Positions 24,501 to 63,461 of a stretch of 64,000 nt of DNA are shown here, in pieces. Under the pieces are notes generated by a model, which saw nothing but the letters and a program-made list of their open reading frames with translations, had not been told where the DNA came from and ran no database searches. The stretch's first letter is position 1; the number at the start of each line of letters is the position of its first letter. Both the position numbers and the translations under genes were made by a program. The stretch covers positions 7,446 through 71,445 of the forward strand of contig NMRA01000521.1 of assembly GCA_002633005.1 (NCBI GenBank), read 5' to 3'. This DNA comes from Phoronis australis (taxonomy: Eukaryota > Animalia > Phoronida).

Positions 24501-26605
24501 ACATATATTTAAGCGTACGGAATAAATACAAAACGTACCTCCATTGGAGTAGATGACGTAATATCCCACTCGATATTTATCCTCTTATCAACCTCGACAT
24601 TCGATAGATACGCGGAATGTTGTTTCGTGTGATATTACTTCATCTACGCCATTCTCGGTACGTAATGTGTATATATTTAATCAATCCTTGATTGGTTTGT
24701 TGCGTACTAAAATTTGAGTGTTACCGGGAACATTGTTGGTAATTTAGTTAACTGTATAGGTTAACGTCTTGTTTGCATGGATTGTTTATTGATCAGTTGT
24801 ATGTTGTACAATGTATGTCAATAAATACATGTACAAAGCTGAAGTCCAATTTTCGATAAGATTACTCAAATGAATTCACCCTAAGATTTCTAACACTGGG
24901 GGCTGTCCCACGGAAGGGATAAATGGGAGGGGGGGATGGTTGTGCCAGCTCGGGTTGCTATTTTGCTCTGTCATTTGTTGTGTCTGTTAAATATTTCGAC
25001 TTGCTGGCATCCCTTTGGTTAGCTAAACAAAAGAAATGATAACTTTATGATCTGGTATTTTCTAGAGTACCAGCATATCACACTGGTATTGTATTGGTCT
25101 GAATTTTGAATGTTCAGCCCTAACCAGTTGAAAGAAGAGAACCATGAGAAAGAAATTCATCTCTTGAGGCACGAGGTTCTATTCATTAAAGAAGTAAAAT
25201 TAATTGTCGACAGAACGGTCATCTACTTCAGTCAATTTAGTGCATCGCCTGCCTTCCAGCAGACATTGGTTATGTCTTATCGGTGGTCATGGGCTGCACA
25301 GTTTACCATTCACTCTGTTTTTACATAAACTTATGCACCAAAAACAACTTCTTTCAGGTGTGGTATTTATTTATTATTTGTAATGTTGCACGCTCCGTAC
25401 GTGTGCAATTGCGCTTAAATGTACATGTAGCCTGCATTCTCAGCACTATAACCCCTCTACAACCAAGGTTCAAACCTGTTTCGGATGGAAGACTTGCGAC
25501 GAAATATCGATTGACATTTTTGGATACTGCGACTATAGAACTATTCATGCTAGAAATGTTACGAAATTTTCTTGTACTAGTATTTTGGAACAGTTGTCTA
25601 AAATTTGCTAAAGTTGCCGTCATCACACATATAAATTTATCCTCAAAATGAAAGAGGGTAAAAGTTACAGATATCCTTTTTAAACTAAAAATATGCCAAT
25701 TATTAATCACTCCAGCTAGTTGTACAAATGAGCTTGATGTTCTGTCCCACCTTTAGCTGATGTTCTTATGCAATCACGCTTAACACCGAAGTAAATCAAA
25801 CCATTCCATGTTCATACACAACGCATATCAAAACATAAAAGTTTACAGTTTCCTGAATTTAAAATTTTTAGAATCTCTTTAATTTGGCATTATTTATCTT
25901 ATGGAAGATGAAATGAATTGTTGAATTTAATACGAGCTGTTATTAATTTTCGTTGCGTTTAAGATATTTAGAGTTGCGTCGAGAGGATATTTTTGTGCTT
26001 AGGTTTAGAATGAACTAACGCGTTCAAATCCGTTTGATGAAGTTTTCATCTAAATGAATCCGAAGAATTGTCATTCAGAAACTTGATGTTTCGTTGAATC
26101 GAATTTTTACGTAGGTTTATGAAATTCAGTTTAATCTACGTGTACATAATCAGGTCTCTCTCAAACAGCAAAGATACGTATCTGTAAACAACAACCTACA
26201 ATAGCCACAGAATACAAATTTCATCACACATTTCTCACCGAAGTTGCAGTTAATCCAGATCCAGTTTTTCGTAGTATTTTCTATTACGATGTTGTGCGTA
26301 TCGTCTACGACGTGGCGGTCATTAATATAACATCTTCTCGAGCTTTGATCGAAGTTTGCTGACGAGCATCTCTCGTGTGTATTATACTCCAGTAGACACA
26401 ACTGAGTGCAGTAGGACTGTGTAGCGGATGTGTAACTGACATTAAGCGAGTAGGGGTCCAACAATCTCTGACCCGACGTTGATTCTAAAAATATCAAAAC
26501 GTCGCCACCCAACGTTCTGTTGTGTGGGGTTAATTCGACGGCCAAACTCATTGCGACTGAGATACATATCAAAACTGGAAAAATCGGCGTCCTGCGAGAA
26601 AGCAT
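7568..26605 (-). CDS. Spliced gene (7 exons, 374 aa): secreted protein with signal peptide, PAN/Apple, fibronectin type III and ILEI (GG-type lectin) domains
   Basis: Exons 26605-26239, 18669-18531, 17598-17444, 10807-10734, 10144-9984, 8215-8106, 7686-7568. GT-AG introns with phases 1,2,1,0,2,1 are all consistent; 1125 nt. Extra phase-1 exons in the two long introns cannot be excluded. Confidence 0.8.
8106..8215 (-). CDS. Exon 6: ILEI domain
   Basis: Strong pyrimidine tract, tcacag|T GTT; VIVVVCTFDEPKNNANKVLDIVKDLGANQKPTMEDR; donor A|gtaagt. Confidence 0.82.
9497..9628. repeat. (CAT)n microsatellite
   Basis: Directly visible; intronic. Confidence 0.95.
9984..10144 (-). CDS. Exon 5: ILEI/GG-lectin domain
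   Basis: ttctag|ATC; INGQ...RSYTFIVLDSASGE...YDVH...FYQSLPD(G); donor GG|gtgagt. Confidence 0.8.
10734..10807 (-). CDS. Exon 4: start of the ILEI domain
   Basis: ttacag|CT ACG; TIEVTAEGYGLNDW...VMK|gtaaag. Confidence 0.7.
11711..11870. repeat. (CAGA)n/(CA)n compound microsatellite
   Basis: Directly visible. Confidence 0.9.
13311..13350 (+). ncRNA. Minimal hammerhead-ribozyme-like core (Penelope type)
   Basis: gc-CTGATGA-TG-AGACT(ctc)AGTCT-A-GAAA-tata-gc. Confidence 0.4.
13660..14912. mobile_element. Kolobok-like non-autonomous DNA transposon with long imperfect TIRs and a THAP remnant
   Basis: TTAA at both ends; AGGTGAAGGCAACC...GGTTGCCTTCGCCT termini; about 270-bp inverted arms. Confidence 0.75.
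14340..14675 (-). pseudogene. Frameshifted THAP zinc-finger domain (transposase N-terminus)
   Basis: MARCCCVLGC...RRFPKDDALRRTW / YRVCGKHFLPSDY...RLKKGTIP split over two frames. Confidence 0.85.
15819..16075 (-). pseudogene. DNA transposase fragment (Academ-like), frameshifted
   Basis: AAYHA...SALLPLL / KAATVSMMKHAL...GQTPVVAVDQPL..WKWPETH motif series typical of large invertebrate DNA transposases. Confidence 0.55.
16343..16500. repeat. Tandem duplication, 76-bp period x2
   Basis: atgtgcaaggaatag...ctcgttgc repeated. Confidence 0.9.
17444..17598 (-). CDS. Exon 3: FN3 domain, second half
   Basis: ttgtag|C CTC; TITGLDGQSSYIVRVTSIN; donor C|gtaagc. Confidence 0.8.
18531..18669 (-). CDS. Exon 2: FN3 domain, first half
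   Basis: gtatag|GA CCC; PPSSP...AVFSWKAGQDGGFRQNFNIAF; donor AC|gtaagt. Confidence 0.8.
19498..20930 (-). mobile_element. Penelope-like retroelement fragment (RT C-terminus + GIY-YIG endonuclease, degenerate)
   Basis: TAMG, WLRYTDGIF (decayed YxDD), KETDKHQYLSYHSCHP, ALRIRRICS; NIIYLITCRKC...VGQT...RFHNH; LEPNGLN end; frameshifts present. Confidence 0.9.
21603..22661. mobile_element. Non-autonomous TIR DNA transposon inserted in the Penelope copy
   Basis: Termini CACAGGCGCT...AGCGCCTGTG; subterminal inverted motif aaacataaaggttggacact; a related end occurs at about 30940-31005. Confidence 0.65.
22835..23210 (+). pseudogene. Highly decayed THAP-like fragment
   Basis: FTISKDAEIRKRWV resembles the THAP FPKD...R..W segment. 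Confidence 0.3.
26239..26605 (-). CDS. Exon 1: signal peptide + PAN/Apple-like domain
   Basis: MLSRRTPIFPVLICISVAMSLA hydrophobic N-terminus; CTQLC...RCSSANF...RRCYIN PAN cysteine pattern; donor G|gtgaga. Confidence 0.8.
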
Positions 26606-27179
26606 CGTAAATCCGTTACTTGGGTTAATTGAAACTCAACTGAACCCCGGTCGATTGGACTTAAGTTTGTCTGACCGCAGAGTGGATTAGAATTAATATC
26701 TAATATCTATTTGCGTATTGGATTTCGAACAGGAAGAAAAAATCTACACGCATATTCTATAAGCAATGTGTACCCAATCAATATAGAGTCAGGAATATCG
26801 ACCCAAATTACAATTATCAGAAGTGTCATTTTACACGTTATACACTTGTTAGCTGAAAATCGATCTACGGGTCCCAAAATGTGCAAGGGTACCAAAAGAT
26901 AATTAGTGTTATAATAAAATCCGCGAAAATAAGCCAAATGTCTTTGAGACATGTTAACTATATCTACTTTTTGCAACATATCATTGTTCCCTTTTATTCC
27001 ACAGTTACTAATAGTCTATATGAGGATCAGACATTTTGAAAGCCACGACTTATTGTGCCACGGTGCATCTACATGTAGTGATAGACATCAGTAACCACTT
27101 ACATGTAGCAGCATATCTACAAACTTTATATGAAAGTACAAAATAGGGTGAAAAGGGGTCGAAAAACTGCAATACAACT

Positions 27180-47041: not shown

Positions 47042-47295
47042 TTACAAAAGTGCGTCCACCATATCGTTTTCCAAGTCGTCATCATCTCCATACTGCAATT
47101 TCGTGTGCAGATGTCTGCTTTCGCCCACATCTCGTTTGATGCCGTCGAAGTAGATTCTTCTCTGATGGTGCTTTTGATGCTCAGGGAACATAATTGAGAA
47201 GTATTCTGTCCAACCACCTTGCCTGCAGCGAACGAGTTCGTAGCGTTCAGGGTCGTCGTGTGCGGCAGTCAGAGTATCTGGATCGTGACAGGATA
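47042..47295 (-). CDS. DyP-GRE terminal exon carrying the glycyl radical loop
   Basis: ttgcag|TA TCC; ISCHDPDTLTAAHDDPERYELVRCRQGGWTEYF...QKHHQRR...DALL*; candidate radical Gly codon 47215-47213. Confidence 0.9.
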
Positions 47296-50200
47296 CTGCA
47301 AAAAGTTCAAGAGAGCGCAGTTGTTTAAGTGCAAATAAGACGGTGGTGAATAAGAAATCTGACTTTATTGTGAACAGACAGGGGTAGCGAGATACCAATG
47401 GAATTCGCAATCTATGAAATCTCTGTGACCCTGTCAGGTGTTATGTTAATGAAAAACAAAGCAGTCCTTTATTCGTCCCTCTCCTCCATCACTGGTTTAA
47501 AATCACACGATATGCTTTACCTTTGACCTTTCTTCGAACATCACTTCAAAAAATTCCAGACGTCCACTAACGCCAAAAACCAAACCCATGTTCCTTGACA
47601 GCACTCTACTTACTAGTGAGCAGGTTTGAACCAATTCCATTTCTCTCGTTTGCAAAGTCCTTTATGAAGTTCTCCAGCATACTGGCAGAGGTACCTTCTG
47701 TTATGTTCAGATCCACTGGAGCGCCGTTACTGAATCCTTTGTTGATCACTTCATTGTTCCAGCTCTTTAAACCACTGCAAAGACACGGAGACGTATTTTA
47801 ACACTTTCCGCAGTTGATGTTAACCGAAGTGGCTTCGTTTCTTGTGAAGGTTAGTGTAAGTTAAAGTGCTCGAACAACAAACACGAGGCATTAAAATACT
47901 AAAAGCTGCAACTGGAATTTTGTATCAAGAAAAACTGTACACTAATAATATTGAAACACACGCTATTCCGTGGTATGGAGGCAAACTCCTTCGCACTACG
48001 AAGTCTTGCGTCTTGTACACATCTTTCTTTGCACGCGGATGGACCAACCGTTCACCCGTGTCATTTCTTTATCTGTGGGTCACACTGTTTTCAGTACTGC
48101 AGATGTGCGTGTATGCAATTATTTCAATAACAACGCTGTTAATGCCCAACATGATGAACTGGTACACGTGTACGTCGAAACTTTGATAAGAGCACCCTAT
48201 TTGCTTTGCAATATTAGCTTTGGTCTGATAGATGGGAGGAATTTTGTGTTTTACCCGTAAGTGAGTTTTATTTTTATGCTGTGGCTTTCACTTGCAATAC
48301 AGAGTCATAGTTTAGTTTGTTATGGCAGTATTTATCCGGCGTCACTTTTGACTGTGACGTGGCGGTTCGGACTTACATTTATCTTTTATCTCTAGCCCTG
48401 GAATGATCTCACGCTGTTGAGATTGCACCGTGCATCCGCCGCGTTTGGTTTTTGTTCGTTTGTTCCGGTGTTGGTTCTTCCTATGGAACTACATTGTGTT
48501 GTGGCTAAAAACTGTTCGAGACTCCGCAGTTTTTCAACCAAATTCCAAAATAATCATCTCATTAGAGCATGGTTGCTGATGATGTATGATTATACAAGAG
48601 GTAAAAGGCACGTGATTTAATTAATATCATTTCAGTGGTTTAAAAATATTTTTCGTTCTAAAAGCCAAGAGTGTCACTAAAATGCGCAAACAAATAGGAC
48701 GAAACAGTGACAATAACAAGAGCAACGCGGGGCGTTGAAATGCACTGTAAACTCTGTGCTAGGTGTAATTATACGTATTTATAGCATACACATGACCCTT
48801 AGATGGCACTGAGTCCAAGAATGGGAAGGTGACGTTGTCTCTTAAAATAATTTGTCAAATTTCAAGAAAATCTGTCGAAGAACTTCAAAAATATACAACG
48901 TAAACCCAAACGAAATCATGAGCAACGCCCGGGTTTGCTTCTATTAACGTTGTTAATACCCTGCGTCAACTATTATATATGCAGAATTTCAGTGCACAAA
49001 TCAATCGATAAAAGTTTTTGCTTGTAAACAAATGTTAATTTGCGTTCAACAATACAGGTCGGTTGGCCTAGGACGCCGTGATTCCCATCACAAGAGTGTG
49101 CCTGAATTTTGTGTCACCTTTGCTTGAAATTGATAAACTGGGTTCAACTTTGCTCCTGCTGTACACTGCAATGTAACACTTTACACCTGCTGAAAAGATA
49201 TTCGGCTATTAGTTCATCGCAGAACAAAAATATTTGGTGAATTATCTCAGAAAATATATGGAGGAGTTACTCGTGAGTTCTCGAAAGTAACTTTACTTTT
49301 TGCTAAAGTGAGGTGTTCACTAAATATTTTTAAAAGTAGATGTGTAAAGCGTCACATTAAATTTAACACTGAAACCTTAAATATTTTTCCCCTGTATAAA
49401 ATTTAAGATTTGCGGTGACAGAAAGGAAAATTTCGTTTGCTATTACGGTTTTCAAACCATGTGTGGTCAATTTGCCTGCAACGAAATGTGTCCCCCAAAC
49501 GTAAACAATCACCTGGGAGATGGAACACGCGTCCGCGAGATGGAAATGAAGTGCAGGAGAGGATTTTGTGCACAGGTACATGTACTGTAGGACCGATGGG
49601 GAACCCAGTGCGAACGGGGAAGTCAGTGGGCCTTGCCAGTGTCAAGTTTTATGACAATGAACTTTGCGAACCTCCAGATATTCAGCGGACAAAAACAGAT
49701 AAAGAAAACTGTATGGCACAGACCTATGGATAAAATTAAAAGACAGAAATTATAGTTAGAAAGTTTTGCATACTTATAAATGTATCTCGAGATGGGAGCT
49801 GCCGGAAGGTCTTGCGGATTAGGGCTGGGGCTGAAATCTGAACAAATCGGTTGACCACTTCGACGTCCATCAGCTGATGCGCCGTTGTCCAGGCCTGCAC
49901 CTACGTAACCTTCGAACGTACCAACGCCAGGAGTGAAGATGAATCCAGAGAGGTTGAACTTTTGCTTCAGTTCTTCCATGCGAGTCTGTGATAAAAGAGG
50001 GTGCAGATCATACCAAGAGGTTCGACAAGTGCAAGCGCACCACCTCAGCTACCGATGAGATCCGCTCAAGGGACAGGTTTCTGTCAGTTTGAACAGTGTC
50101 AGGTGGGTGCAAAATGAAGCAAAAATTGGCAAACAACTATTTCGCACCCACTGTAGGCCTATATGTTGCATTCGTTAGCTGGGGTCACGCAGTTAGTACC

Positions 50201-53200
50201 TTAGTAATCAGCGTAGACTGGGTGCATTAGACTAATTAGGAAAACAAATTGGCTAATAGGTTTTGTACGGAACAGGCAACGGTTTGCGAGTGCGTTTTAT
50301 GACGAAGCGCTAAAAAGTAAAACATTATTTAAACGCCGCTGCTTAGTGAGATGTCACGGGTAATTTATGCTTACACATTTGTAGCGCTCCTCATTTGCCC
50401 TCGCTATTTCCGTTATGTTTCTTTCACACCACATTGCCCCCCCAAACCTTTCAACATTCAAATAAACATGTGCCAACCGAACGAAATTCAAGTGTCCTAT
50501 ACGATTGTCGTTAAACAATTGTAACTTCTTACATAGCTAGTAGGTCAAAATGCACAACTTAAAAAAAAAAAAACGTTTTAACAACATGCAAAGATTTTAG
50601 AATAAGTTCTAAAGGTAAACTCTTAATTTCATTACAAAACACTCATCTTTCAATACAACTTATTTCAATATACACTTAAAAATGTATGTTTTAAACGTTT
50701 TCCTGAGGAAGTAAAATCCCGGTTGCAGGATTTATATAAATGTGTTTAACGGTATCAACAAGACTGTACACTGTGTGAGGTTACCTTGACTGGCGCGGAG
50801 CTTACAACGTTTCGCACTTCGTCATGGACCATCTTCATCACTTCATGTCCCAGTTGATCGATGTCGTCAACTCCCTCCCCGAACCTAGGGAAAGACATGG
50901 CCACTTGTCGATATCTTTTGTATTTCTCTCCATGGGCCATTGACCTTGTTGATCCAGCTCTAATGTCTTGCATAGGCTCCTTCATGTCGTATCCCCAGTC
51001 ACACTTAAAAAGTAGGGGAGGATACAACGTCACGTCTCGAAAGAAAACGCCACTGGTTATCTGACTACATTCATTTGAGGCTTTGTAGCTCATCAATGTT
51101 TTCAGTAAACATATTTTGAAATCTGTTCCTTGTTTCGTAATCCGATACAGACATTGCGAAGCAACTCTGTGTAAACTACATACAATAGTTCTCCAAGATA
51201 GCAAAACAACGACGCACAAATGGCGAATTGCACTGTTTTTGGTCTAGAGTCTGGTTACAGGTACTTTGTCGAAGTAGCGTCAAAGTAGACCGCCAAGGCA
51301 ATTAAAAAGAAACAGAGGTTTGGAGTAATAACCTCGACTCAAGCATCGACAACGTTTAGCGTGACATAAGTTTTACCTACCTGACATAGTCTGCCGGAGT
51401 CTGGTATAATTATCAAAACTACTGTACCAGCGAGTAACTTTTTAACTTGTATTATCACTGAATATCATTTGAAAGGATGATCAACAACCATACGGGTAGA
51501 ATTTTTCAAAGTAAACGTCACAAACGCCAGTGCATTGATAGACATCTAAATTTTTAGGAATGACTTCTCCGCATAAAAGTATACGGATGAATCGAGTCAG
51601 TATCCTAATTAACTTCATACTCAGTTTATGGAAATAGAATATTAAACTGTCATTGTTCCATGCCTGAGGTAATGGACCACTTCTGTTTGAGTGAACTTGT
51701 ATTTCCAACTAAATAAGCAAGTCAGGCGTTGACGTTTTACTGGCGTTTCAAATTAAAAAAATAAGCCTAGCCGTGAAAGTGACGCTGCAAATCTTACATT
51801 TGATCAACGTTTAATGGAAATCAACGATCACACACCATATGAAACAATGCATACCTTTAAACAAGTTACCAAATCTTCAAGATCAGTAATAGCGGTGGTA
51901 GGATTAAACACCATTTGTTTAATGCGATACAGGGAATCAATAGCGTTCGAGGCACCCACGAACATTATGGCCAGGATATGATGAAGGGCACCTCCGTTAG
52001 ACAAGTCTCTCCCACTTTCCTTGCATCCTCTGATGATGGTGGACAAAAGCGAAGATGGGCACCACTTTAAAGGAGAAAACTATAGCTGTAGATATATATT
52101 CAGAGCAATAGATAAATTGTACTCATTGGTCATATTTTGTCAGTTCCTTGCTTTGGAAGTTATAAACCGAAAACTCTTCAGTGATTATCATGCGTAACGC
52201 TAACCATGATCTTAACTGTAACTGAATAACATCTCTTGAAACAAAAAGAACGAACGAATTTTTGTAAAAAAGCATTCACCTTCCACAGGTTACCATAATT
52301 CTGAAGCATCAACAAACAAGAGTTGACAATTTGGAGATGGAGATGTCGTCCAAAGATGGCCATTAGTTCTTTGAAATCCTTTATCTCCTCAGGAGGCTTA
52401 GTTTTGTAAGATGATTTCGCTCCGCGTAAAAACACAGGTCCCGCCTTCTTGTACAGAGTGCCTTCGTTAATGGCCATTTCCACTATGTTGAGTAACGGAA
52501 CAGTAATGAAGGCAAATTCCGAGGCTCCTGTAACCATGGGCTCATAACATCCGTCACACGCGTAATCCCTGGCAGCAGACAGTGGAACCTAAGCGAGTAC
52601 ATGGATGAGAACACTAGTTTGAAGTTCATTAAGCCAAAGCTAACACAGGATCTAATTGGCGCCATTATTACAGGAACACGAAAAAAAAAAATAAATTGCA
52701 TTATTTATAGTCTGTGGCTCTATGCCACCGAACCTTGTTCATCAAGTATTTTCATAGTATCACAATGCCCTTTGGCCTATGATCGCACAAAACAATGGCG
52801 ATTTCAAGCAGGAGCCTTTCAGTAAGATCAATTGATGTAAGTCCTATAAATCGTGAACTTTGTGGTCTTTTTTCTAGAAATTGCCTCATATGGCCAAGTA
52901 AATAACTCTTTAGTAAGCGTTGCAAGATGATGGTTTCGCCAGGAAGTGATTAAAAATATTCTGACAAGCGTTTTGCTTTCCATTCCTCTGAAAGATTTAT
53001 GATGCCATGTAACTTGCAAACCGCAGTACCTGTATCATTGATGGTACATGTAGTCAACACATCCACTCAGCCTTGATTATATTACAGCATTTTTTCTTGT
53101 CAAAAACAGTTACGTAGACCATCGGTTCAGTTCGGAAGCCGCATTTTCTCACCTGATAGGGGTCTACTCCACTCGATTGCAAACCAGGCACCATACGGTC

Positions 53201-56200
53201 ATCATTGAATATGATTGGATGGGCACCTCCACTGAGTAGAGCCTTTGCAGTTTCCTCAATTATATCCTGGCCCAGTTTTGTACTCTCGATACCTTTATAT
53301 AGGCGCAGAGAGAAACATGGAGCATTCAATGGAAGGCGGCGAGTGGCTTTGAGAAACTTTAAAGTTAGTTCGTTTATTCCTGGAGATGGCGCTGTTTCGT
53401 CAGTTGCCTTGTATCCGCCAAGAGTTACCTGTTGTACCCATTGATTTATTCCTACAAAGTAAAAGAATGTAACCTTGTCAACGACTGCAGATATAGCTGG
53501 CTTGCACACTGATACTACTTTAACAGAACACATACATTTGACACCCTTGCAACTTTTGTTGAATAAATAAGTGTTTCACGGTATTACCTGTTATATAACA
53601 AGAGCAACGCGGAGCGTTGAAATGCGCCCACAATTGCACCGCATAGGGTATCCTTCTAGGGTTGTTTATTGGCCAGTAGAGGGCATACTTTGCAAAATGG
53701 AAAGGCATGGTCATTGTCGCCTCAATAGGCTAGGGGCAAAATGTGAGTAATCTTCATAATACAAGCACATCCTATACACCAGTTGCTTAAAGCACCACAG
53801 AAACATAGAATTAAAAACAAATTTACCAACATACGAGATTAGCACAGCATTAGAATGCCAGAAANNNNNNNNNNNNNNNNNNNNNNNNNNNNNNNNNNNN
53901 NNNNNNNNNNNNNNNNNNNNNNNNNNNNNNNNNNNNNNNNNNNNNNNNNNNNNNNNNNNNNNNNNNNNNNNNNNNNNNNNNNNNNNNNNNNNNNNNNNNN
54001 NNNNNNNNNNNNNNNNNNNNNNNNNNNNNNNNNNNNNNNNNNNNNNNNNNNNNNNNNNNNNNNNNNNNNNNNNNNNNNNNNNNNNNNNNNNNNNNNNNNN
54101 NNNNNNNNNNNNNNNNNNNNNNNNNNNNNNNNNNNNNNNNNNNNNNNNNNNNNNNNNNNNNNNNNNNNNNNNNNNNNNNNNNNNNNNNNNNNNNNNNNNN
54201 NNNNNNNNNNNNNNNNNNNNNNNNNNNNNNNNNNNNNNNNNNNNNNNNNNNNNNNNNNNNNNNNNNNNNNNNNNNNNNNNNNNNNNNNNNNNNNNNNNNN
54301 NNNNNNNNNNNNNNNNNNNNNNNNNNNNNNNNNNNNNNNNNNNNNNNNNNNNNNNNNNNNNNNNNNNNNNNNNNNNNNNNNNNNNNNNNNNNNNNNNNNN
54401 NNNNNNNNNNNNNNNNNNNNNNNNNNNNNNNNNNNNNNNNNNNNNNNNNNNNNNNNNNNNNNNNNNNNNNNNNNNNNNNNNNNNNNNNNNNNNNNNNNNN
54501 NNNNNNNNNNNNNNNNNNNNNNNNNNNNNNNNNNNNNNNNNNNNNNNNNNNNNNNNNNNNNNNNNNNNNNNNNNNNNNNNNNNNNNNNNNNNNNNNNNNN
54601 NNNNNNNNNNNNNNNNNNNNNNNNNNNNNNNNNNNNNNNNNNNNNNNNNNNNNNNNNNNNNNNNNNNNNNNNNNNNNNNNNNNNNNNNNNNNNNNNNNNN
54701 NNNNNNNNNNNNNNNNNNNNNNNNNNNNNNNNNNNNNNNNNNNNNNNNNNNNAAACAGACTCGAAAACAGTAAAAATGGCCACTAGGTGGCGCAAACTAT
54801 GTCGAATCCATCCGAAAACGGCAGGATAGCGTCATCTCACTACTAGGTGCCTACATACCAAATTTCATGAAAATCCGTTCAGGACTTTTGAAGATACAAA
54901 GGTAAGCGTAAAAAACTAAAATTGCCACTAGGGGGCACACCGGTAGTCGGATCCGTCCGAAAGTTCGCACATGCCGTCCCATTCATGAATGGAACATATG
55001 TGCCAAATTTCATGAACGTATGTCAAAGGGTTTTGGAGATAGAGCAGCGGACTCCGCCCGGACGGACGGACGGACGGACGGACGGACGGACGGACGGACG
55101 GACGGACAGAGATGACGGCATAATGCGTCCACATATAAATATGTGGGCGCATAAAAATCTGCTCCTTTTTTGGACGTTAACAAACTACAAATCGCTCGTG
55201 GCACAAGGATAACTGAACTGCACATCTGCAAAATCTTGATTTAGGAACGTGGAGGGTATCAAATTAATGCAGTGATATATGAATTACACGGTCGGTTAAA
55301 AAACCTGGGTTCAGTACATTATACAAAATGATTGATAAAATGGAAATCAAGGTACTTCTTTTCAGGGGATAAAAGACTCATCCAGCGACATACTTTTGGG
55401 GACATCGAACTGCGGGGCGTGTTCTGTGAGCCAAGTGAAATGCTTTTTTGGTTAGAAATATTTTAATCTCTAAGTGACACCATTCCAACACTGAAGAGAA
55501 TTTCATTACATTTAACGGTTAGCTGAATTTCTTTGGAAATACAAAAGGCGAAGAAAAGACGTCAATCACTGTTACGCTTGCTGTATATATGTAAGTCATT
55601 TTCACGGTAATTATAACACTTGTAACGAAAAAAACTCACCTCCACCTTGGGGGAAGTTGCCAGTGGTCTGATAGAAAACAGCAGTTACCCCAGGGTAAAC
55701 CAGGTCTTTGATAAAATGCCTGTTCATTTCCACGCGCTCACTGAGTTTCAGACAAAATGCATCGATGACATCCTGCGGAGGTGCATCCTGCAAAGGAAGT
55801 AATTCTGTTCGGTAAAGTCTCGGTAAGTTTATGTGTACATATACACTGTACTTGCAGTGCTTGAGTGAGGTTTTCATCTACGCTGCATGACTTTTGCTTA
55901 AACCAACTGATACAAAGGATCATATGTGGTATCAACAGCAACCACAATTCTATAATGGCAGTTATTTTCTTACCTCTGGGTTAGTCTTATCGAGGAATGG
56001 TAGGAGGATCTGATCAAGCCTTCCAAGAGCAACAGGCTCGCCGATGTTATGAAGACAACAGTGGAACGAGAACAGAAGTTGAACTGCGTCAGTAAATGTA
56101 ACAGGTGGCTGCACCGACAACCTGTTTAGACGCTCGTGAATTTGTCGCAAGCTGTCAACCTACAAAATAAAGAATAATTTGGGATTGTTGTATTGGAATT

Positions 56201-59200
56201 CTGGTGAAATTGCCAAAACATACACAAGTCAAGTCTTCCACGAACAGTTGGTAACATGTATATACCATACATTTAATGAGGTAGACGATGTTTGGAGAAT
56301 TAAATGCGGTGTAGTGTACATGCATATTTCTGAAGAAGATTGCCGATATATCAATATACCAGCATAATTTGAATTTATTACAGTATACCTTAGCCGTGAT
56401 TAAGGATTCAGGATGAAGCGACTGAATGACAGGCTTACGGTTTGCTGTGTACACTACTATTTATCGGTACGTTATTGGGCAAATATGTGCTGGAAATTAT
56501 GCTTCTGGAAATACTTCATAACTTGATGTAGTTCACAAAAATTAACAGTTTGGGCAATGAGGATTCATTGACGGATTGTTCTAGAAAACCCCACGGCCAC
56601 TGGACTCACGACCAACAACCCATCGACCCAAGACCTGTAGCAATAATTTTTGGGCTTCTTACACATTTCAGAATCATATTAGGTGGCTAAATGACTTCCC
56701 CGTAACACTTACCAAGGCGCAAATCTCCTCTGGCTCAAGTCTGGCGGTTAAAAACAGAAAGTGCATAAGAACATAATCAGAAATAGCGGACTGCGAGCGT
56801 GCTATTCTTACTACGGAAGTAGTTCCAGGAGCGGCTACCAATGGCCCTGTTTTACTAAACTTAGGGGGAGTGTACGTGAATGCACATATTTCACCGTTTT
56901 ATAAGTTCCTTTCTGTTGTATACTACTCTAAGATATACTCCATGTAACATTGAAATACTGTTTGAGTTAACAAATTGTTTTTTCAAACTGCACTTACTGA
57001 AGAAATTACATAATCGTCGGTTCTTCTCATTCTCCCAAAAAGCTGCCATTCACTGAAGAGCCGAGAACGACATTTGTAACGTTGATAGGTCTTTGATTTG
57101 ATTTGATTGTCAATTAGTTGTTTTTTTTTCTATTTTTGGTTTTCAGTCTTGGCTAATTGAATATTCTAATTGCAAAAATGAAGAAACGCCAGTTGACTGC
57201 ATAACCAACGAGTCTGACCTCACGCTTGGACTCGTTCGTCCTGCAAGTCAGCGCTCTTGTTCTACATTTACATGTATGTTCAGATCAAGTCGAGCTTGTG
57301 TAGACTAGGTCCAGGGGGTTGTAGGCCCTGGGTCGAGGGGGGGGGGGCTGTCGTGGGTCGAGGGGGTCCAAGAACAATCGATAGGTGACTACCTGGTATT
57401 GAATTGCAGTAAGTTGGTTACATCGGTAAGCTGATGTGAGCGACTTGCGTAACAAATGACAACGTAATAGGGATAAAACTGCCATGATACTGTTGACAAG
57501 ATTGCTCCACCAAGGTAATACACGTGCGACTTCATTGCGGATGCATACTATACGCAAGAAATAGGGAAAAATAGCACGTTTGATTTTGGTTTGTCATTCT
57601 GTTGAAAATCGGATATGTGGTGTGGTATTTTTAGTCAGTTCCTCCTTGAAAAAATAGCCGAAATGATTAAAATGATTCGGCATTAACTTTTTTTTCCGGT
57701 CGGCAAATCATGGCATTTTTAACTGTGTTTATCCTCGCGTATGTGGCTTTACGAAATTTTTCAGAACAATCGCTTTGCCGGACGTTTGCGCGTTTGGGCG
57801 TCCTTTTCGCTTTAGTCAGTAAGCTAGATTATCAAACTAAGTCAAATACAGACCAGAACCAACTATTAAATTTTTGATCAAACAACAACCGCTACCTGAT
57901 TCTTGGGAAGGTTATCCTCATAAGAGATTTTCATTGCCAAGTCTGCGAAATTGGTCATATACATCTGAACACCTTCTAGGGAAGACAATGCGGAGTTGTA
58001 AAACTCTTTCTGATCCTGGTCCAGGGTTGCGACTTGAGCATTCATCTTAATCTCCTGTATCAGTTGCCCAATGCCTTTGGTAACAAGTTCGCCGTGATCT
58101 GGTACAACGTGCCCCATCATTCCTGCTTCACTTAGATAAACGCTGAAGGCCTCCTCCGTCTCGATCTCGCTCAGATAAGGCATGACAACCTGAAAATGGA
58201 AACGATTACTGTAAATTTTCGGGTTATTTATAGGAATGACTATGACTCTCCGTTACTTATAACCTTACTATTGATTCAGCAATGTTCAATTGAACATTCC
58301 AGAAAGAGAATAATGTTGATAACAATATCAAGAAAAATACAATTTATGTTGCCGCTATACTCCAAGGACATAAATGTTTCATTGCTCAGCGGCAAGAGAC
58401 CAAGTTCAAAACTGACTTATGATTTCAAAATGTTTAAAATGCATGCGTACCTTTCCAAGACCCAGACTAAAATGAGGCATTACACCCACAATTATTTCGT
58501 CCGGGAAAATCCTAAACAAGTCAGCCTTTTTCCCATAGTCTTCTTCCGTGATAGCAACTCCCAAAGTCATCTTATTCGCGTACCCCTTGCGGCTGGGTAT
58601 GCTTAGCTGATAGAAGTCGTCAGGATCATCGAGAAAGCGGTGCGCGTAGTTCTGTAAATGCTGGTACTCTGGTACAACGGGCTTCACGTACCATCTGTAG
58701 TATGAAAAGCGAAATAAGTACACGAACAAACTTGCTTACAACTCATCCAAGACCTATTCTCCGAGCTCAGACTAGACTCAAACTCACATTAGAAAATTAA
58801 TCATTCGTGTCGCAATGTTCTAGTTCTCGTTCGGACAGCAACGTGCAACTTGTACATGTATTCTTTGTAGATTGTCGAGTCTAGTGTCGATAGCAAGAGT
58901 TAGACTTCAGGCCCTGGAGTCAACACACTAATATCTCAAGAGTTGACTACATTGAACTGCTATTCTGTGTACTGCATACCCAAATGAGTACATGAACAAA
59001 GCAGGGCGTTGCTATGCCCCTGGTACCGTGTGGACAACACCTAAGGCACCTGTAAAGGGTGATTACTATTTCAAGCATTGTAACTCCAGCAATCACTGGT
59101 ACTTAACTTAAAATAACTTATAAACTTACATAGTACATGTACGTCAGCAAGGTTTTCCTCAAAATGATCACATATCAAGTTCGTAAAAATATTAATGGCA

Positions 59201-62200
59201 CTAAGAAGCACATCGGTTTTCAGATACCTGTAGGGCTTCCTTTTCCATGTTCACAGAAGCACACCTGTCAAATTGCAATAACACCCTACAGGGCCTAAGA
59301 AGAAACAGCTGTTGGAGTCAAAAAGTACAACAGCTACTAGGGTGCGTCACAGTAGTCAATATTATCCATAATTCATAGCCAGCCATGCTCTTTCCAGTAG
59401 GAATACAAACTACATACATGTACACCAACTTTCATAACCATTTGTTGAGTGGTTTGGCCACTTGAAAGATGGACGCCACAAAGCAGTAACGAAAAATAAT
59501 AATGCTATCAACAGAAGGATTAAAAATACCTGGAAACACGAGAAAGTGTCCTCGTCTCGTCTAATATTAATCAGTTTGCCACATTCCACAAAAACATGTC
59601 AATAAATTCCAAAGATACTGAGGAAAACTGAAAAAACCAAGTAGCCCCTAGATTGTCACATCGGTTGATCCATCGGAAATTAATCATCGTCCGGAGCCTC
59701 GTAACCCTTCAAGAAGTACAGTTGACAAATATAACGAAAATACCGCAAAGGAAGCGTTACAACAGTCTTAAGAGTCCGAGTATCATCGCCAGTCGTTACT
59801 TTTGCATTTGAAACATATAAACCACCAGACGTTTGTTGCCAACGTCACGTAAACAAATACTTATATTTATATTCACATACACATTTGCTAAATTCGAAGA
59901 ACATCCTGCAGAGAGTTCGTATGATACAGCGATGGACGCAAAACACTGCCAGTTGTAGACACCGCAGTAGGAGCTGTGCGAAAATCGGCGTCAGCTGTTT
60001 TCTTTACAGGGGACATGTTTGCCCAATATCGTAATCAAATTTCTTCTCACAAACAGACGTGCACAGGCGGTTAAAATACATTTCCGCGTCTTCTGTGATC
60101 TGGTAATAATTACTTTAGAATAAAGTTGAAAATTGCATGGAGTTAGAAGGTGAAAAACGACTAACTTGTAAAATACTAAATCAACGGAGTCGGATTATCC
60201 CTTAACGTATTATCGCGCTTTTGGGAACATGGGCTAATATATGAAATGGTGAATCCTTTTTCGCGGCGATTTTTACGCAAGTGGTTCGCATATTGGCGCG
60301 TGCGCCTAATTTTAGCGTACACAATCATGCATAGGCCCATGCATCTATTTGCATATAGGCTCACCGGTTTGACTAACGCTGTTCCTCTGGATAGTAATAT
60401 TTACGTTTGCCTCAGTATCTTTGGCGTCTAACCGAAGTAATGCTTTTTCGAGCCATTTTTAGCCAAGTTGGTCTCATATTGGCTCCTGCACCCAGGATTC
60501 GGATGTAAGCGCAGTTCCGCACAGACGACCATGGACCTAATGATGCGGCAATGATACAGGCTTCACTGTAAACTAGCTTCGGTACCGCTTCGTACATGTA
60601 GTTAGCGCATAAAATACAGCTTGAATAAACCGCGAAATAAGTTACTCATCACCCGGACAATTCAAAAGTTGTGGCCACCCGGCCAAGCAATCCATTAAGC
60701 TAAGAGGTACCAGTTGAGGGCCTCTGGCACGAAATAAGGTGTGTGTGGGACGTCTTGTCGCCACTTGATCCTCAAAAACTAGTAGCCACTGAGGTGAGCA
60801 ACTGAAAAATTGTGGTAACGGGGGAAGTGAAATTTGGTGTACGTCTCGTCGCCAAAGGGTTCCCTACGAAAGTTGTGGCAACTTGAGGAAGGGTAAAGTG
60901 ACGGAACGGGACTTGGGGCCCAAAGACCTGCGATGTGTTCAATTGTGATTCACTGAAAATGATTGCTATTTCATATTATATCAAGTTACAAGAAACACCA
61001 ATGGCAATCTGTGTAGTGGCACCAGATTTTCATTTCCCAAGATTGGGACCCATTTTAAGGAGACTGAGACATTGAAAAAGTTGTGGATTCTGAAAGGACG
61101 ATTTCAGGAATGCATGGGAATTTGTAGGGAAAACATCAGCTAGGATTAATCCCCAAAGGAGATCGCTTCGAAGAGACAAGCAACAGAATATCAGTAAAAA
61201 CAGCCTTGACGTGCTTCTAAGGTAGGGATTGAAATACTCAACTTATTTTAATATGAAATTCGCCAAGTGTGTTGTACGAGAACATACCTGTTTCTCCACT
61301 GCGCGAACGTATTATCTAAGAGTTTGAGAACTCGGGAAGAAGGAATATCTTCCTTATCAACATACGCTCCCGTACTCATACGGTGCATGTACTCCGCCGA
61401 GTTGTAGAACATGTACCGGTTGGTTCTTGGTTTCACGTTCCAGTGCTCTAAAAGGTCAAGGTCGGGAGCCCCAGGGCTCTGAAACTGATTTGAAAGCGAC
61501 ATCAGTTAAGTATTGGTTGGTGATTCGCATGGTAAATCAAGATAAGGTTGAATAAGTATTGTTGTCCTGTTGAAAAATACAACTATTTGGATAGCTATTT
61601 CATTTCTTACTAACATTTTACAATTACATGTTGATGATATGAATAACATACGATGCAACCAGCGAAACATTCTAAATTTGTCATTTGTGGGGGAATTGTT
61701 ACAGAGATGTTGTGATAAGACAAATATGTACATGCATTATTTATGGTAATCTAAAAGCATGACGTCATCCGTTGAGGCAAGTATTTGCTAGGTAGAGTAG
61801 TAAATAAGTCAGGGAAAAGAGAACCCACGCTTTATGACGTCAAATTTCGATTACAGAACCTGAATCGTAATCAGTTGAATTCGAGTCGATCAATCCCCGC
61901 CGATGTCCATTTCACAGGCCATTTCATGTACAGCAATTCGTCAGGTAAGCGATCGGTCGATTTACTGTTCCTGCTCAGGTGATTCTACCGGTGTTATCTT
62001 AAGAAGTTTAGGAATCAGTGGGCAAGAGAGAGTACCTAAATCGCCGATCTGTGCGCAGTGACAGAGTAGCTCGCTGAAATGCTTGTGCGGCAGTAAAATA
62101 GTTCTGGTATTTAAACGGAGGGATCTACAACTCCTGTCTTCCACGAGAACCGGTGAAGAAGACCAAAATTGCTGCAAAACTCCTTAATCTTCTTTTTCCG

Positions 62201-63461
62201 TAATTATTCATTATCATTATTAACAAAGTACTTATGAGAAAAAAAACGTAGTCATTTGCAACACATTAGGTACCTATGACCCGAGTCACTCACAGATACC
62301 TAAAGTTGAAAATCAGTTGTCACTACAGCTAAATGGCAACGTTATTGCATTTGTAAAACGGAAATGGTCTATACCTCTAATCCTGGAAACTGATCAGACT
62401 ACCCTAACCGAAACGAAAGCATGGAGTTTTCTATTATGTCTTGAGTTGTGATTTTGGAGTCTGAAGATGGTCTCCTTACATCCAGAAAGTCATTATCACC
62501 ATCGATATGCCGAATCACTGAAAACAGAGGACTTTAAATTTTGTGCCTTTAAAATAATAATCTGACATGTGAGCTCTTGGGTGAAAAAGCTATTCGATGT
62601 TACTCACGTTTGGGTCAAGCTCTTCTGCACTCGGCATATACCAGAAGCTTCCTTCCAGTCCATCAACATTAGATATAAGTTTGTCGTCGGTGAAATTAGG
62701 GTCACTCCCAGCAAGATTTCGTAAAACATCTTGAATAGCTGTGAGCGTATTGCAAAATGCAACAAAGTACACCCCCTCCTCTCTGGAAAGCCCAGTTTCA
62801 GATATCCCGTAGGGCAGTGACTGACGATACAGCTTAAAATGTACAAAAGAATCGAACACGCATGATTATTCTCAGATACAAATTCAGCATTCGCTGAACG
62901 TTACGACATATAATTTAGAAATAAGCAACTGTTACATAAGACTAACAAATTTAGTTGATTGCAGAAATACATGCTCCTGAGTTTTAAAGCGACATTCATG
63001 CACCATTTAATATAAACTTAGGGACAATTTATGTACATCAGATACTCGGTTATTATAAGACAGTTTGTGAAGCCACTTCATTCTTGTTGGTATTATGGGG
63101 GTTTTCATTATTTTATAGCTTGATTGAACCCGACGGGAAGATGTTTCTCAAATGATAGAATGCCTGGCAAAGTATTTACAGGTAGAGTAATCATATTGGT
63201 TGCGATGCCATCGAATGACAAAAATGAAAGATATCCTTTCTGTAACTTTTACACGAGATATATAGAAATGGTGTACCTTGTGGGCAACTTGTCCTTTCTC
63301 GTTTAAAACACGTGCTCTTTTAATGTGACTTCTTTCATCGTTCATCGGAATAATGCAGCCATTGACTTTTCGTCCAATCATGTCTTCCTTTTCATTCATT
63401 TGCATGTCATTGAGCAGACTCCATGAGAACTTAAACTTCTGGGTGAAGCAATAGGTACCTC
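47042..63461 (-). CDS. Spliced gene (>=14 exons, 5'-partial): DyP-type heme peroxidase fused to a glycyl radical enzyme (PFL-like) domain
   Basis: Exons 63461-63277, 62832-62608, 61478-61288, 58694-58451, 58189-57896, 56159-55974, 55787-55640, 53451-53153, 52588-52280, 52064-51855, 51003-50785, 49985-49774, 47774-47614, 47295-47042. All 13 introns are GT-AG and phase-compatible, giving 3137 nt without an internal stop. DyP motifs: GGTYCFTQKF, MIGRK, SHIKR, LYRQSLPYG, GVYFVAF, GSFWYMPS. GRE motifs: GHVVPD, ALGRLDQ, QVTLGG, GCYEP, GCKESGRDLSNGGA, GASADGR, RQGGW. Confidence 0.9.
47614..47774 (-). CDS. DyP-GRE exon (not represented in the ORF track)
   Basis: ttgcag|T GGT...A|gtaagt; GLKSWNNEVINKGFSNGAPVDLNI...GIGSNLLT. 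Confidence 0.85.
49774..49985 (-). CDS. DyP-GRE exon
   Basis: tcacag|ACT...AA|gtatgc; GASADGRRSGQPICSDFSP. Confidence 0.9.
50785..51003 (-). CDS. DyP-GRE exon
   Basis: ttttaag|TGT...AAG|gtaacc; CDWG...PRFGEGVDDIDQLG. Confidence 0.88.
51855..52064 (-). CDS. DyP-GRE exon
   Basis: ttaaag|TGG...AAG|gtatgc; PSSLLSTIIRGCKESGRDLSNGGA...NAIDSLYRIKQMVF. Confidence 0.9.
52280..52588 (-). CDS. DyP-GRE exon carrying the catalytic Cys loop
   Basis: gcttag|GTT...AAG|gtgaat; VPLSAARDYACDGCYEPMVTG; Cys codon 52549-52547. Confidence 0.9.
53153..53451 (-). CDS. DyP-GRE exon
   Basis: ttgtag|GA ATA...CAG|gtgaga; QQVTLGG...NELTLKFLKA...GGAHPIIFNDD. Confidence 0.9.
53597..55157 (+). mobile_element. HINE/Helentron-associated non-autonomous element spanning the assembly gap
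   Basis: 5' AACAAGAG; subterminal atgcgcccaca complementary to 3' tgtgggcgcat; (GACG)n at 55060-55107; 3' hairpin at 55123-55152 followed by an A run; the same 5' end occurs at about 48716. Confidence 0.6.
53865..54752. other. Assembly gap (888 N), intronic
   Basis: Run of N; the flanking exons join in frame (NFPQGG-G-INQW), so no exon appears to be lost. Confidence 0.98.
55640..55787 (-). CDS. DyP-GRE exon
   Basis: ttgcag|GAT...G|gtgagt; QDVIDAFCLKLSE...GNFPQGG. Confidence 0.85.
55974..56159 (-). CDS. DyP-GRE exon
   Basis: ttgtag|GTT...GAG|gtaaga; PPVTFTDAVQ...ALGRLDQILLPF. Confidence 0.88.
57896..58189 (-). CDS. DyP-GRE exon
   Basis: ttttcag|GTT...CAG|gtagcg; GHVVPDHGELVTKGIG...EFYNSALSSLEGV (GRE GH..PD motif). 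Confidence 0.88.
58451..58694 (-). CDS. DyP-GRE exon: start of the GRE barrel domain
   Basis: ctacag|A TGG...AAG|gtacgc; ...FRIFPDEIIVG matches the GRE N-terminal I.PDE.IVG motif. Confidence 0.85.
61288..61478 (-). CDS. DyP-GRE exon: aromatic-rich inter-domain linker
   Basis: tttcag|AGC (alternative in-frame acceptor giving a start at 61484); donor AG|gtatgt; SPGAPDLDLLEHWNVKPRTNRYMFYNSAEYMHRM...FAQWRN. Confidence 0.8.
62608..62832 (-). CDS. DyP-GRE exon: C-terminal part of the DyP domain (distal Arg)
   Basis: ttttaag|CTG...AAC|gtgagt; LYRQSLPYG...EGVYFVAFCNTL...DDKLISNVDGLEGSFWYMPSAEELDPN resembles the C-terminus of class B/P DyPs such as YfeX. Confidence 0.88.
63277..63461 (-). CDS. DyP-GRE exon: DyP domain with proximal His
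   Basis: ttttag|GA GGT...CAC AAG|gtacac; GTYCFTQKFKFSWSLLNDMQMNEKEDMIGRKVNGCIIPMNDERSHIKRARVLNEKGQVAHK; His codon 63327-63325. Confidence 0.85.

Follow-up and report, generated by a model that had tools for sequence, protein, structure and literature searches.

A 64,000-nucleotide stretch of the Phoronis australis genome (contig NMRA01000521.1, positions 7,446 to 71,445; hereafter the window) contains a real, expressed and spliced gene in which a dye-decolorizing peroxidase (DyP) is fused to the barrel of a glycyl radical enzyme (GRE). The gene is a member of the DyP-PFL fusion (subclass P2), in which a class P DyP is followed by a pyruvate formate-lyase (PFL)-like domain in one chain, and its barrel is, as judged from sequence and alignment, an eliminase-type GRE with a Cys-x-Glu loop and not a PFL. 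To our knowledge, every characterised GRE needs a radical S-adenosylmethionine (radical-SAM) activase and anoxia. Comparison across the fusion family suggests a different route, in which the heme domain would make the Gly/Cys radical with peroxide and so replace the activase; we put the probability of this reading at roughly 0.6. Radical formation driven by the heme, either by this glycyl route or through a transient Trp/Cys radical, is considered probable by sequence comparison. The animal clade of the fusion described here is new, as it was not found in the open-access literature, whereas the bacterial and fungal fusion is already known but uncharacterised.

The gene consists of 14 GT-AG exons on the minus strand, running from 63461 to 47042 (Table 1), that join into 1,046 residues with a single terminal stop. 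Exons were located by six-frame translation and tblastn with homologs, and RNA evidence was taken from three raw-read runs under the window's species label (X1, X2 and X3), of which about 18-19% each was read. All 13 exon junctions were found in the RNA, with 29-50 reads per junction in X1, 22-56 in X2 and 0-7 in X3, short reads proving single junctions and not one full-length molecule. The first mate lies on the plus strand for all junction reads, which fits minus-strand RNA in a usual stranded library. RNA depth is even over the exons and no transcript end is listed within the gene. At the upstream border, 27 and 24 reads extend past 63462 into an exon beyond the window; the 5' end of the gene therefore lies outside it, and about 170-210 N-terminal residues, including the distal Asp, are missing here.

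A first-pass annotation of the window, made from its letters, had proposed one spliced frame joining a DyP to a full GRE barrel. This is borne out by the RNA junctions, the open frame and the one-piece alignment with family members, and the motifs lie where they had been placed (SHIKR at 63330, RQSLP at 62826, GCYEP at 52552 and RQGGW at 47224). The DyP domain is present, with Dyp_perox_C on exons 1-2, but incomplete within the window for the reason given above. Two of three junctions singled out for RNA confirmation, 61288/58694 (29/23/3 reads in X1/X2/X3) and 58451/58189 (40/33/1), occur as claimed. The third, 62608/61478, had to be corrected: two in-frame AG acceptors lie six bases apart at 61478 and 61484, and the former was dropped since the reads list only the latter, joining 62608 to 61484 (41/23/6). 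A candidate 28-base exon at 56740-56713 was also dropped, as it disrupts the reading frame and the reads pass over it. Intron 7 holds an 888-base N gap, which is spanned by the RNA joint 55640/53451 (48/43/1 reads).

This gap and the 5' exons outside the window are the two points that could speak for an artefact, be it two separate genes, a pseudogene or bacterial contamination. Such an explanation is highly improbable, given 13/13 canonical junctions in RNA, an open frame of 1,046 residues, 10 synonymous changes among the 13 exonic variants listed as best supported, colinear homologs with a single open reading frame (ORF), and the grouping of the window protein with animal proteins.

Table 1. 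Exons of the DyP-GRE fusion gene in the window (positions in window coordinates).
Feature	Position	Strand	Evidence
Exon 1 in window (internal), DyP C-terminal domain, conserved Arg (IGR), proximal His in SHIKR (codon 63327-63325)	63277..63461	-	Pfam Dyp_perox_C E 2.6e-5; RNA junction 63277/62832
Exon 2, DyP distal Arg in RQSLP (codon 62826-62824), GVYFVAF strand, Asp of DDKL	62608..62832	-	Pfam Dyp_perox_C E 5e-7; RNA
Exon 3, DyP-barrel linker (Tyr of MFYN, Trp of QWRN)	61288..61484	-	RNA joints 62608/61484 (41/23/6), 61288/58694 (29/23/3); colinear with single-ORF bacterial fusions
Exon 4, GRE domain N-terminal part	58451..58694	-	RNA; tblastn to homologs
Exon 5, GRE, predicted active-site His in MGHVV (codon 58111-58109; aligns with glycerol dehydratase GHV)	57896..58189	-	Pfam PFL-like E 1.2e-10; alignment to 1R8W via homolog P0005; RNA
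Exon 6, GRE (GEPVALGRLDQ)	55974..56159	-	Pfam PFL-like E 1.2e-8; RNA
Exon 7, GRE (GNFPQGG)	55640..55787	-	tblastn; RNA joint 55640/53451
Exon 8, GRE (INQWVQQ ... GGAHP)	53153..53451	-	Pfam PFL-like E 2.9e-12; RNA
Exon 9, Cys loop DGCYEP (Cys codon 52549-52547, Glu 52543-52541)	52280..52588	-	Pfam PFL-like E 8.5e-10; RNA
Exon 10, GRE	51855..52064	-	Pfam PFL-like E 1.4e-13; RNA
Exon 11, GRE	50785..51003	-	Pfam PFL-like E 2.4e-3; RNA
Exon 12, pocket residues, GTFEG ... ASADGRR	49774..49985	-	tblastn; RNA
Exon 13, glycyl-radical domain first part	47614..47774	-	tblastn; RNA
Exon 14 up to the stop codon, RQGGW as Gly loop (codons 47215-47213 for the predicted radical Gly and 47212-47210 for Trp), then an acidic tail	47042..47295	-	RNA depth and joint; no PF01228 match; reads run on 3' below 47042

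A search with the Cys-loop exon returned fused DyP and PFL proteins of 1,186-1,207 residues as five of its seven matches. With an alignment of fused proteins, 69 bacterial loci were found in Myxococcota, Beta- and Gammaproteobacteria, Bacteroidota, Chloroflexota and others, and in most of them the fusion is one intronless frame. The window protein is 36-47% identical to the bacterial fusions and colinear with them over the domain border (45.8% over 1,050 columns to P0002). Its identity to animal proteins reaches 47.9% (Patiria P0017) and 48.2% (Branchiostoma P0182), and that to a fungal member is 43.7%. Such one-piece alignment over the DyP/GRE border with intronless bacterial and with animal proteins argues that the arrangement is neither chance nor two genes. 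Individual members carry additional domains, namely an N-terminal C2 domain in P0035 (Diaphanoeca) and a C-terminal DUF2278 in P0039; the C-type lectin of P0027 (Mytilus) was probably joined on by the gene model, given the cut in the Gly loop there.

The AlphaFold model of the bacterial homolog P0005 (1,199 residues; not the window protein) has a pLDDT of 89.9 and a pTM of 0.92, which implies a fixed arrangement of the two predicted domains. Residues 9-312 of the model match KpDyP (Z 33.4, rmsd 2.2, 288 aligned residues) and residues 352-1195 match glycerol dehydratase (Z 33.7, rmsd 2.8, 707 aligned residues; Foldseek was also run). The match covers residues 3-787 of 1R8W, with the ten-stranded barrel complete to the C-terminus, and the window protein aligns with P0005 throughout. 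None of the NCBIfam GRE models reached its cut-off in P0017, P0182 or P0005: the equivalogs of CutC, HypD, sulfopropanediol dehydratase and aryl-acetate decarboxylase scored 90-180 against cut-offs of 1000-1150. The DyP model TIGR01413 scored above its cut-off in the same three proteins. An identity as pyruvate formate-lyase was dropped because the Cys-Cys pair is absent (ACDGCYEP) and TIGR01255 scored 21.4 against a cut-off of 994 in P0017.

The catalytic residue sets of both the heme and the GRE domain are conserved in the aligned family. All 65 rows of the alignment share the GRE residues Cys, Glu, Arg, Gly, Gly and Trp as well as the T, F and E of GTFEG, and the pocket residues H488, T1033 and E1035 are invariant across 36-66% identity. 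Among the 63 rows with the respective DyP columns, the distal Asp is kept in 62, the proximal His in all 63 and the distal Arg in 59. SHIKR, DDKL and RQSLP of the window fall in columns H216, D288 and R234 and thus supply the proximal His, its Asp partner and the distal Arg. GCYE and RQGGW supply the catalytic Cys and the R-x-x-G-aromatic loop, RQGGW aligning with RVAGY of 1R8W via P0005.

Profile searches, which the first-pass annotation had named as a check with failure of either domain as a refutation, gave a divided result. Dyp_perox_C (E 2.6e-5 and 5e-7) and PFL-like (six exon frames, E 1.4e-13 to 2.4e-3) were found, but the Gly_radical model PF01228 had no match on the last exon, the best scores in the family being 16-21 bits against a cut-off of 22.2. 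Failure of this model is a poor refutation, as it fails on the fusions of 49 of the 50 carrier genomes searched, yet the loop Arg, Gly and Trp are invariant. Unfused sister GREs that are paired with an activase carry RMGGW (70/80) or RVGGW (5/80), so this unusual loop is no sign of an inactive site. The failing profile would also fit a peroxide-consuming or peroxidase enzyme in which the barrel has no GRE radical chemistry and serves as scaffold, thiol sink or substrate binder. Peroxide induction of a fungal member (see below) and the tandem expansion in Patiria (at least five full-length copies), which resembles that of defence or detoxification genes, point the same way. This explanation appears improbable to us, since the whole barrel is kept and Cys, Glu, Arg, Gly, H488, T1033 and E1035 stay invariant over 36-66% identity, a pattern that a functional radical site would show.

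That the DyP replaces the activase, as the first-pass annotation suggested, draws its support from comparison of loci and genomes. No activase was found in the 64-kb window. The activase motif GCxxxCxxCx[NS]P occurs in 71 of the 80 loci with an unfused sister GRE (the best 80 of 365 metagenome loci) versus 0 of the 70 DyP-partnered loci (69 fusions and one split pair), although wider flanks were available for the latter. Flanks of up to 8 kb per side at the 69 fusion loci hold three plausible radical-SAM frames with CxxxCxxC; the activase motif is absent from all three, and no radical-SAM cluster recurs. Six of the nine sister loci without the motif end about 800 bases or less from the gene, the other three being L117, L118 and L123, and two motif-bearing neighbours of sisters were verified as activase-type by Pfam. 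Redundancy differs between the sets: the 80 sisters form 64 clusters at 90% identity and 9 at 70%, and 58 fusions form 49 and 18; the motif is present in 8 of the 9 sister clusters at 70%. The sisters (L071-L150) constitute a large uncharacterised, activase-paired GRE group with the loops DGCWE and RMGGW.

Three family searches were run on 50 of the 69 carrier genomes, leaving out short-contig and near-duplicate genomes; several of the records are titled complete, completeness being otherwise not given. No strong PflA/PflC-type activase match was found in 46 of these 50 genomes. TIGR02494 matched in 19 genomes at E <= 1e-5, and strong PflA/PflC-type matches (E <= 1e-36) were limited to four, where each lies about 3 kb or less from a separate, canonical, PF01228-positive GRE. 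A strong NrdG-type match occurs in three further genomes, so that 43/50 have neither type. The control searches matched in 10 and 7 of 14 genomes. PF01228 itself, which we take to be the surface bound by the activase, gives E-values of 3e-9 to 4e-17 for ten unfused relatives and, for the DyP-partnered clade, E >= 6e-4 or no match.

The pairing of this GRE group with a peroxidase appears to have arisen more than once. A tree of the GRE domain (147 rows) holds two separate fused branches. The DyP of the main branch is class P, with DypB/DtpB as nearest solved structures, and that of the second branch (P0061 and P0077) is class V, nearest to AnaPX/DyP2. On a Hymenobacter plasmid (L070:11590-14929), an unfused sister GRE split in two frames is followed 11 bases behind by a shortened class I-like DyP and then by a PLD-like gene; both genes are frameshifted in the record as deposited, and no activase motif occurs in the 26 kb of this locus. 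Replacement would predict just such an association of one activase-free GRE group with three DyP classes, the second and third pairings (class V and class I-like) resting on few loci. A DyP profile built from class P fusions had no match in the 80 sister loci; since it also missed the Hymenobacter DyP, other classes may be present there.

The absence of the usual activating protein from most bacterial carriers is what makes the DyP a likely substitute. In the proposed mechanism, H2O2 would oxidise the heme to compound I, and the oxidising equivalent would hop via Trp/Tyr to the Gly loop, whose Gly adjoins an invariant Trp, and on to the Cys. The resulting thiyl radical, with the Glu as acid/base, would then drive the dehydration of a small polar substrate or the cleavage of its C-N/C-O bond, an elimination like those of CutC and glycerol dehydratase. 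As the radical would be made on demand, the enzyme could work, or be reloaded, in the presence of oxygen. Many carriers are myxobacteria, Burkholderiales, Pseudomonas and Flavobacteriia, which we assume to be aerobes. Candidate relay residues are Y338, W373 and W934 (P0005 numbering), which are conserved in the main fused branch including the window and not in the activase-paired group. Recurrent neighbours at the 69 bacterial loci are a phosphoesterase (12), DUF2608 (9), a 430-residue family (8), a GMC oxidoreductase (4), PLD-like proteins (3, plus Hymenobacter) and a multicopper oxidase (3); they hint weakly at a substrate or product derived from a phospho-ester or lipid head group and at a local source of H2O2. 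We also count in favour of heme-driven activation that H2O2 reportedly raises expression of a fungal DyP-PFL gene 3-fold and peroxyacetic acid 18.5-fold (PMC5041501).

The same co-occurrence evidence would suit a variant in which the heme domain makes a short-lived Trp/Cys radical at each turnover, as in class I ribonucleotide reductase (RNR), the Gly being structural or transient. Cleavage by O2 would then be avoided, and both the invariant Trp directly after the Gly (65/65) and the clade-specific Tyr/Trp at 338, 373 and 934 would be accounted for. We regard this variant as rather unlikely by itself: the Trp is also found in activase-paired sisters and is thus no special adaptation, and the loop Gly and Arg are invariant.

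Several points weigh against activation by the heme domain. A glycyl radical is destroyed by O2, and the buried Gly loop is hard to reach. Gly stands in place of the distal Arg in four fusions (L022, L040, L049 and L067), so peroxidase chemistry is not universal in the family, and one fusion without the distal Arg sits in a genome with two activases (G017). These four come from Gemmatimonadota, Desulfobacca, Acidobacteria and Scalindua records and have a rebuilt heme pocket. The exon for the distal Asp (GXXDG motif) of the window copy lies outside the window, the animal homologs having FRDG, FADG and YVDG. The class V branch lacks the candidate relay residue W373, and searches for its neighbourhoods found no member of that branch in plasmids, in 401 Myxococcota-group genomes or in 401 genomes of the phylum of G004. 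As 69 of the 80 sister loci belong to one 70% cluster, the contrast in activase motifs reflects few independent lineages. Weak partial TIGR02494 matches occur in 15/50 genomes and, with completeness not given, leave room for an unrecognised radical-SAM activase acting in trans. A putative PFL activase is reported in Chaetomium (PMC5041501).

The last two points are also those that would favour a model in which an unrecognised protein, radical-SAM or other, activates the GRE in trans and the DyP shields the GRE from H2O2. Shielding of this kind was proposed in PMC9719856, and peroxide induction of the fungal gene fits a protective role. Nevertheless, we judge activation in trans unlikely, if somewhat less so than the other alternatives, because the motif is present in 0/70 partnered loci versus 71/80 sisters, each strong activase found adjoins another GRE, the score of the activase-binding domain (PF01228) is lost in the partnered clade, and no radical-SAM neighbour is conserved across 69 loci. 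Protection of the radical, the other option raised by the first-pass annotation, is the weaker one, since protection cannot replace a missing activase.

Homologs in animals were identified in Patiria miniata, under four Branchiostoma labels, in Mytilus coruscus and in Hydractinia symbiolongicarpus, and in other eukaryotes in the amoebozoan Phalansterium and the choanoflagellate Diaphanoeca. A tree of 45 rows was built with IQ-TREE (LG+G4), leaving out the long-branch rows P0034, P0038 and P0039 and four redundant bacterial rows. The window, eight named animal rows and P0023 form one clade in it (support 97/90), with Phalansterium as sister (99/96); Diaphanoeca stands elsewhere in the tree, and the fungal P0195 falls outside the animal clade, within the betaproteobacterial copies. 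The branching order within the animal clade is not resolved in this tree. With best identities of 48% (Patiria and Branchiostoma), the window represents a further lineage. The introns and the nearby frames of THAP, PAN and retroelement type agree with the tree in pointing to an animal host. The animal copies likely stem from one old acquisition that was inherited and lost in most lineages, as the sequences group; repeated transfer into animals from an unsampled bacterial group is not the simplest reading. That animals from cnidarians to chordates retain an old, vertically inherited GRE activating itself with heme and H2O2 is a tentative proposal to which we give slightly less than even odds. 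Such an enzyme would be the first GRE to dispense with a radical-SAM activase, and animal metabolism would gain its first example of GRE chemistry. In Patiria miniata, the P0017 cluster reflects a recent tandem expansion: one scaffold carries two pieces and no fewer than five full-length fusion genes that are nearly identical.

Further features of the window were recorded. Around the N gap of intron 7, a high-copy repeat (53597-55158) is covered by more than 1,000 reads per run, nearly all of one strand, and belongs to an abundantly transcribed repeat family. A second loose-end consensus at 55976 (10 reads in X1, 4 in X2) has several letters unlike exon 7 and may be a divergent allele or a paralog. 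Exon depth over 47042-63461 in X3 is about one tenth of that in X1 and X2 despite similar read numbers, so expression may vary with tissue or condition. Outside the gene, all on the minus strand, broken retroelement frames lie at 19720-20868, with a best match that carries a GIY-YIG domain and is presumably Penelope-like; an exon with a PAN domain (Pfam E 4.7e-6), probably from a secreted protein, at 26150-26635; and a frameshifted THAP-domain remnant (weak Pfam match) at 14306-14717.

If true, a heme/peroxide route to the Gly radical would be a new way to start GRE chemistry; it would bring radical reactions on C-N, C-O and C-C bonds into aerobic cells and offer biocatalysis a one-chain GRE without an Fe-S partner. 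The expressed animal copy, with relatives in amphioxus, sea star, mussel and hydroid, points to a so far undescribed reaction in animal metabolism or defence.

DyP-PFL was named in Chaetomium and bacteria by Zamocky et al. 2016 (PMC5041501), where its significance is called elusive, and Yoshida and Sugano 2022 (PMC9719856) defined subclass P2 for it and proposed protection, stating that PFL needs a radical-SAM activase and anoxia. The first-pass annotation's mention of fusions in microbial and fungal surveys without functional work thus agrees with the available parts of both papers. It also knew of no description in an animal. The open-access literature holds no functional study of the fusion and no animal report, subscription papers and the supplement of PMC9719856, which may list animal P2 members, being outside this scope; annotated animal proteins do exist in databases, however, as 'uncharacterized' or 'putative dehydratase YbiW'. 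The window protein resembles DyP-PFL in having a class P (B) DyP followed by a PFL-like barrel in a protein of about 1,200 residues, at the identities given above (36-47% bacterial, 43.7% fungal). It differs in that its gene is intron-rich and belongs to an animal clade, whereas the available parts of the papers name only bacteria and ascomycetes, assign no function and assume an activase. PMC9719856 lists animals under subclass P1, which is unfused, and ascomycetes under P2.

With the class P DyPs DypB, DtpB, KpDyP and YfeX, the fusion family shares the fold, the distal Asp and Arg, and the proximal His and Asp; here, however, the domain is fused to an 870-residue barrel, and is set apart by description from the stand-alone metazoan P1 enzymes in the available text of PMC9719856. 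The GRE eliminases (B12-independent glycerol dehydratase 1R8W, 1,2-propanediol dehydratase, CutC and HypD) are matched by the P0005 model over the whole length of the barrel (Z 33-34, rmsd 2.6-2.9, about 700 residues), and likewise have a single Cys with a Glu two residues on, a GHV-equivalent His and an R-x-x-G loop. The fusion is only 20-24% identical to them, and has other pocket residues, no activase and a fused peroxidase. PflB shares the PFL-like Pfam domain, the origin of the name in print, but the fusion lacks its Cys-Cys pair (DGCYE). Analogues that work in the proposed way, with no sequence membership, are class Ia RNR, prostaglandin H synthase and linoleate diol synthase. In class Ia RNR, which has no Gly radical, Tyr/Trp residues carry the oxidant-derived radical from a di-iron subunit into a barrel of the same kind. 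Prostaglandin H synthase and linoleate diol synthase likewise relay an oxidant-derived radical to the catalytic site, the former using a peroxidase heme in another fold.

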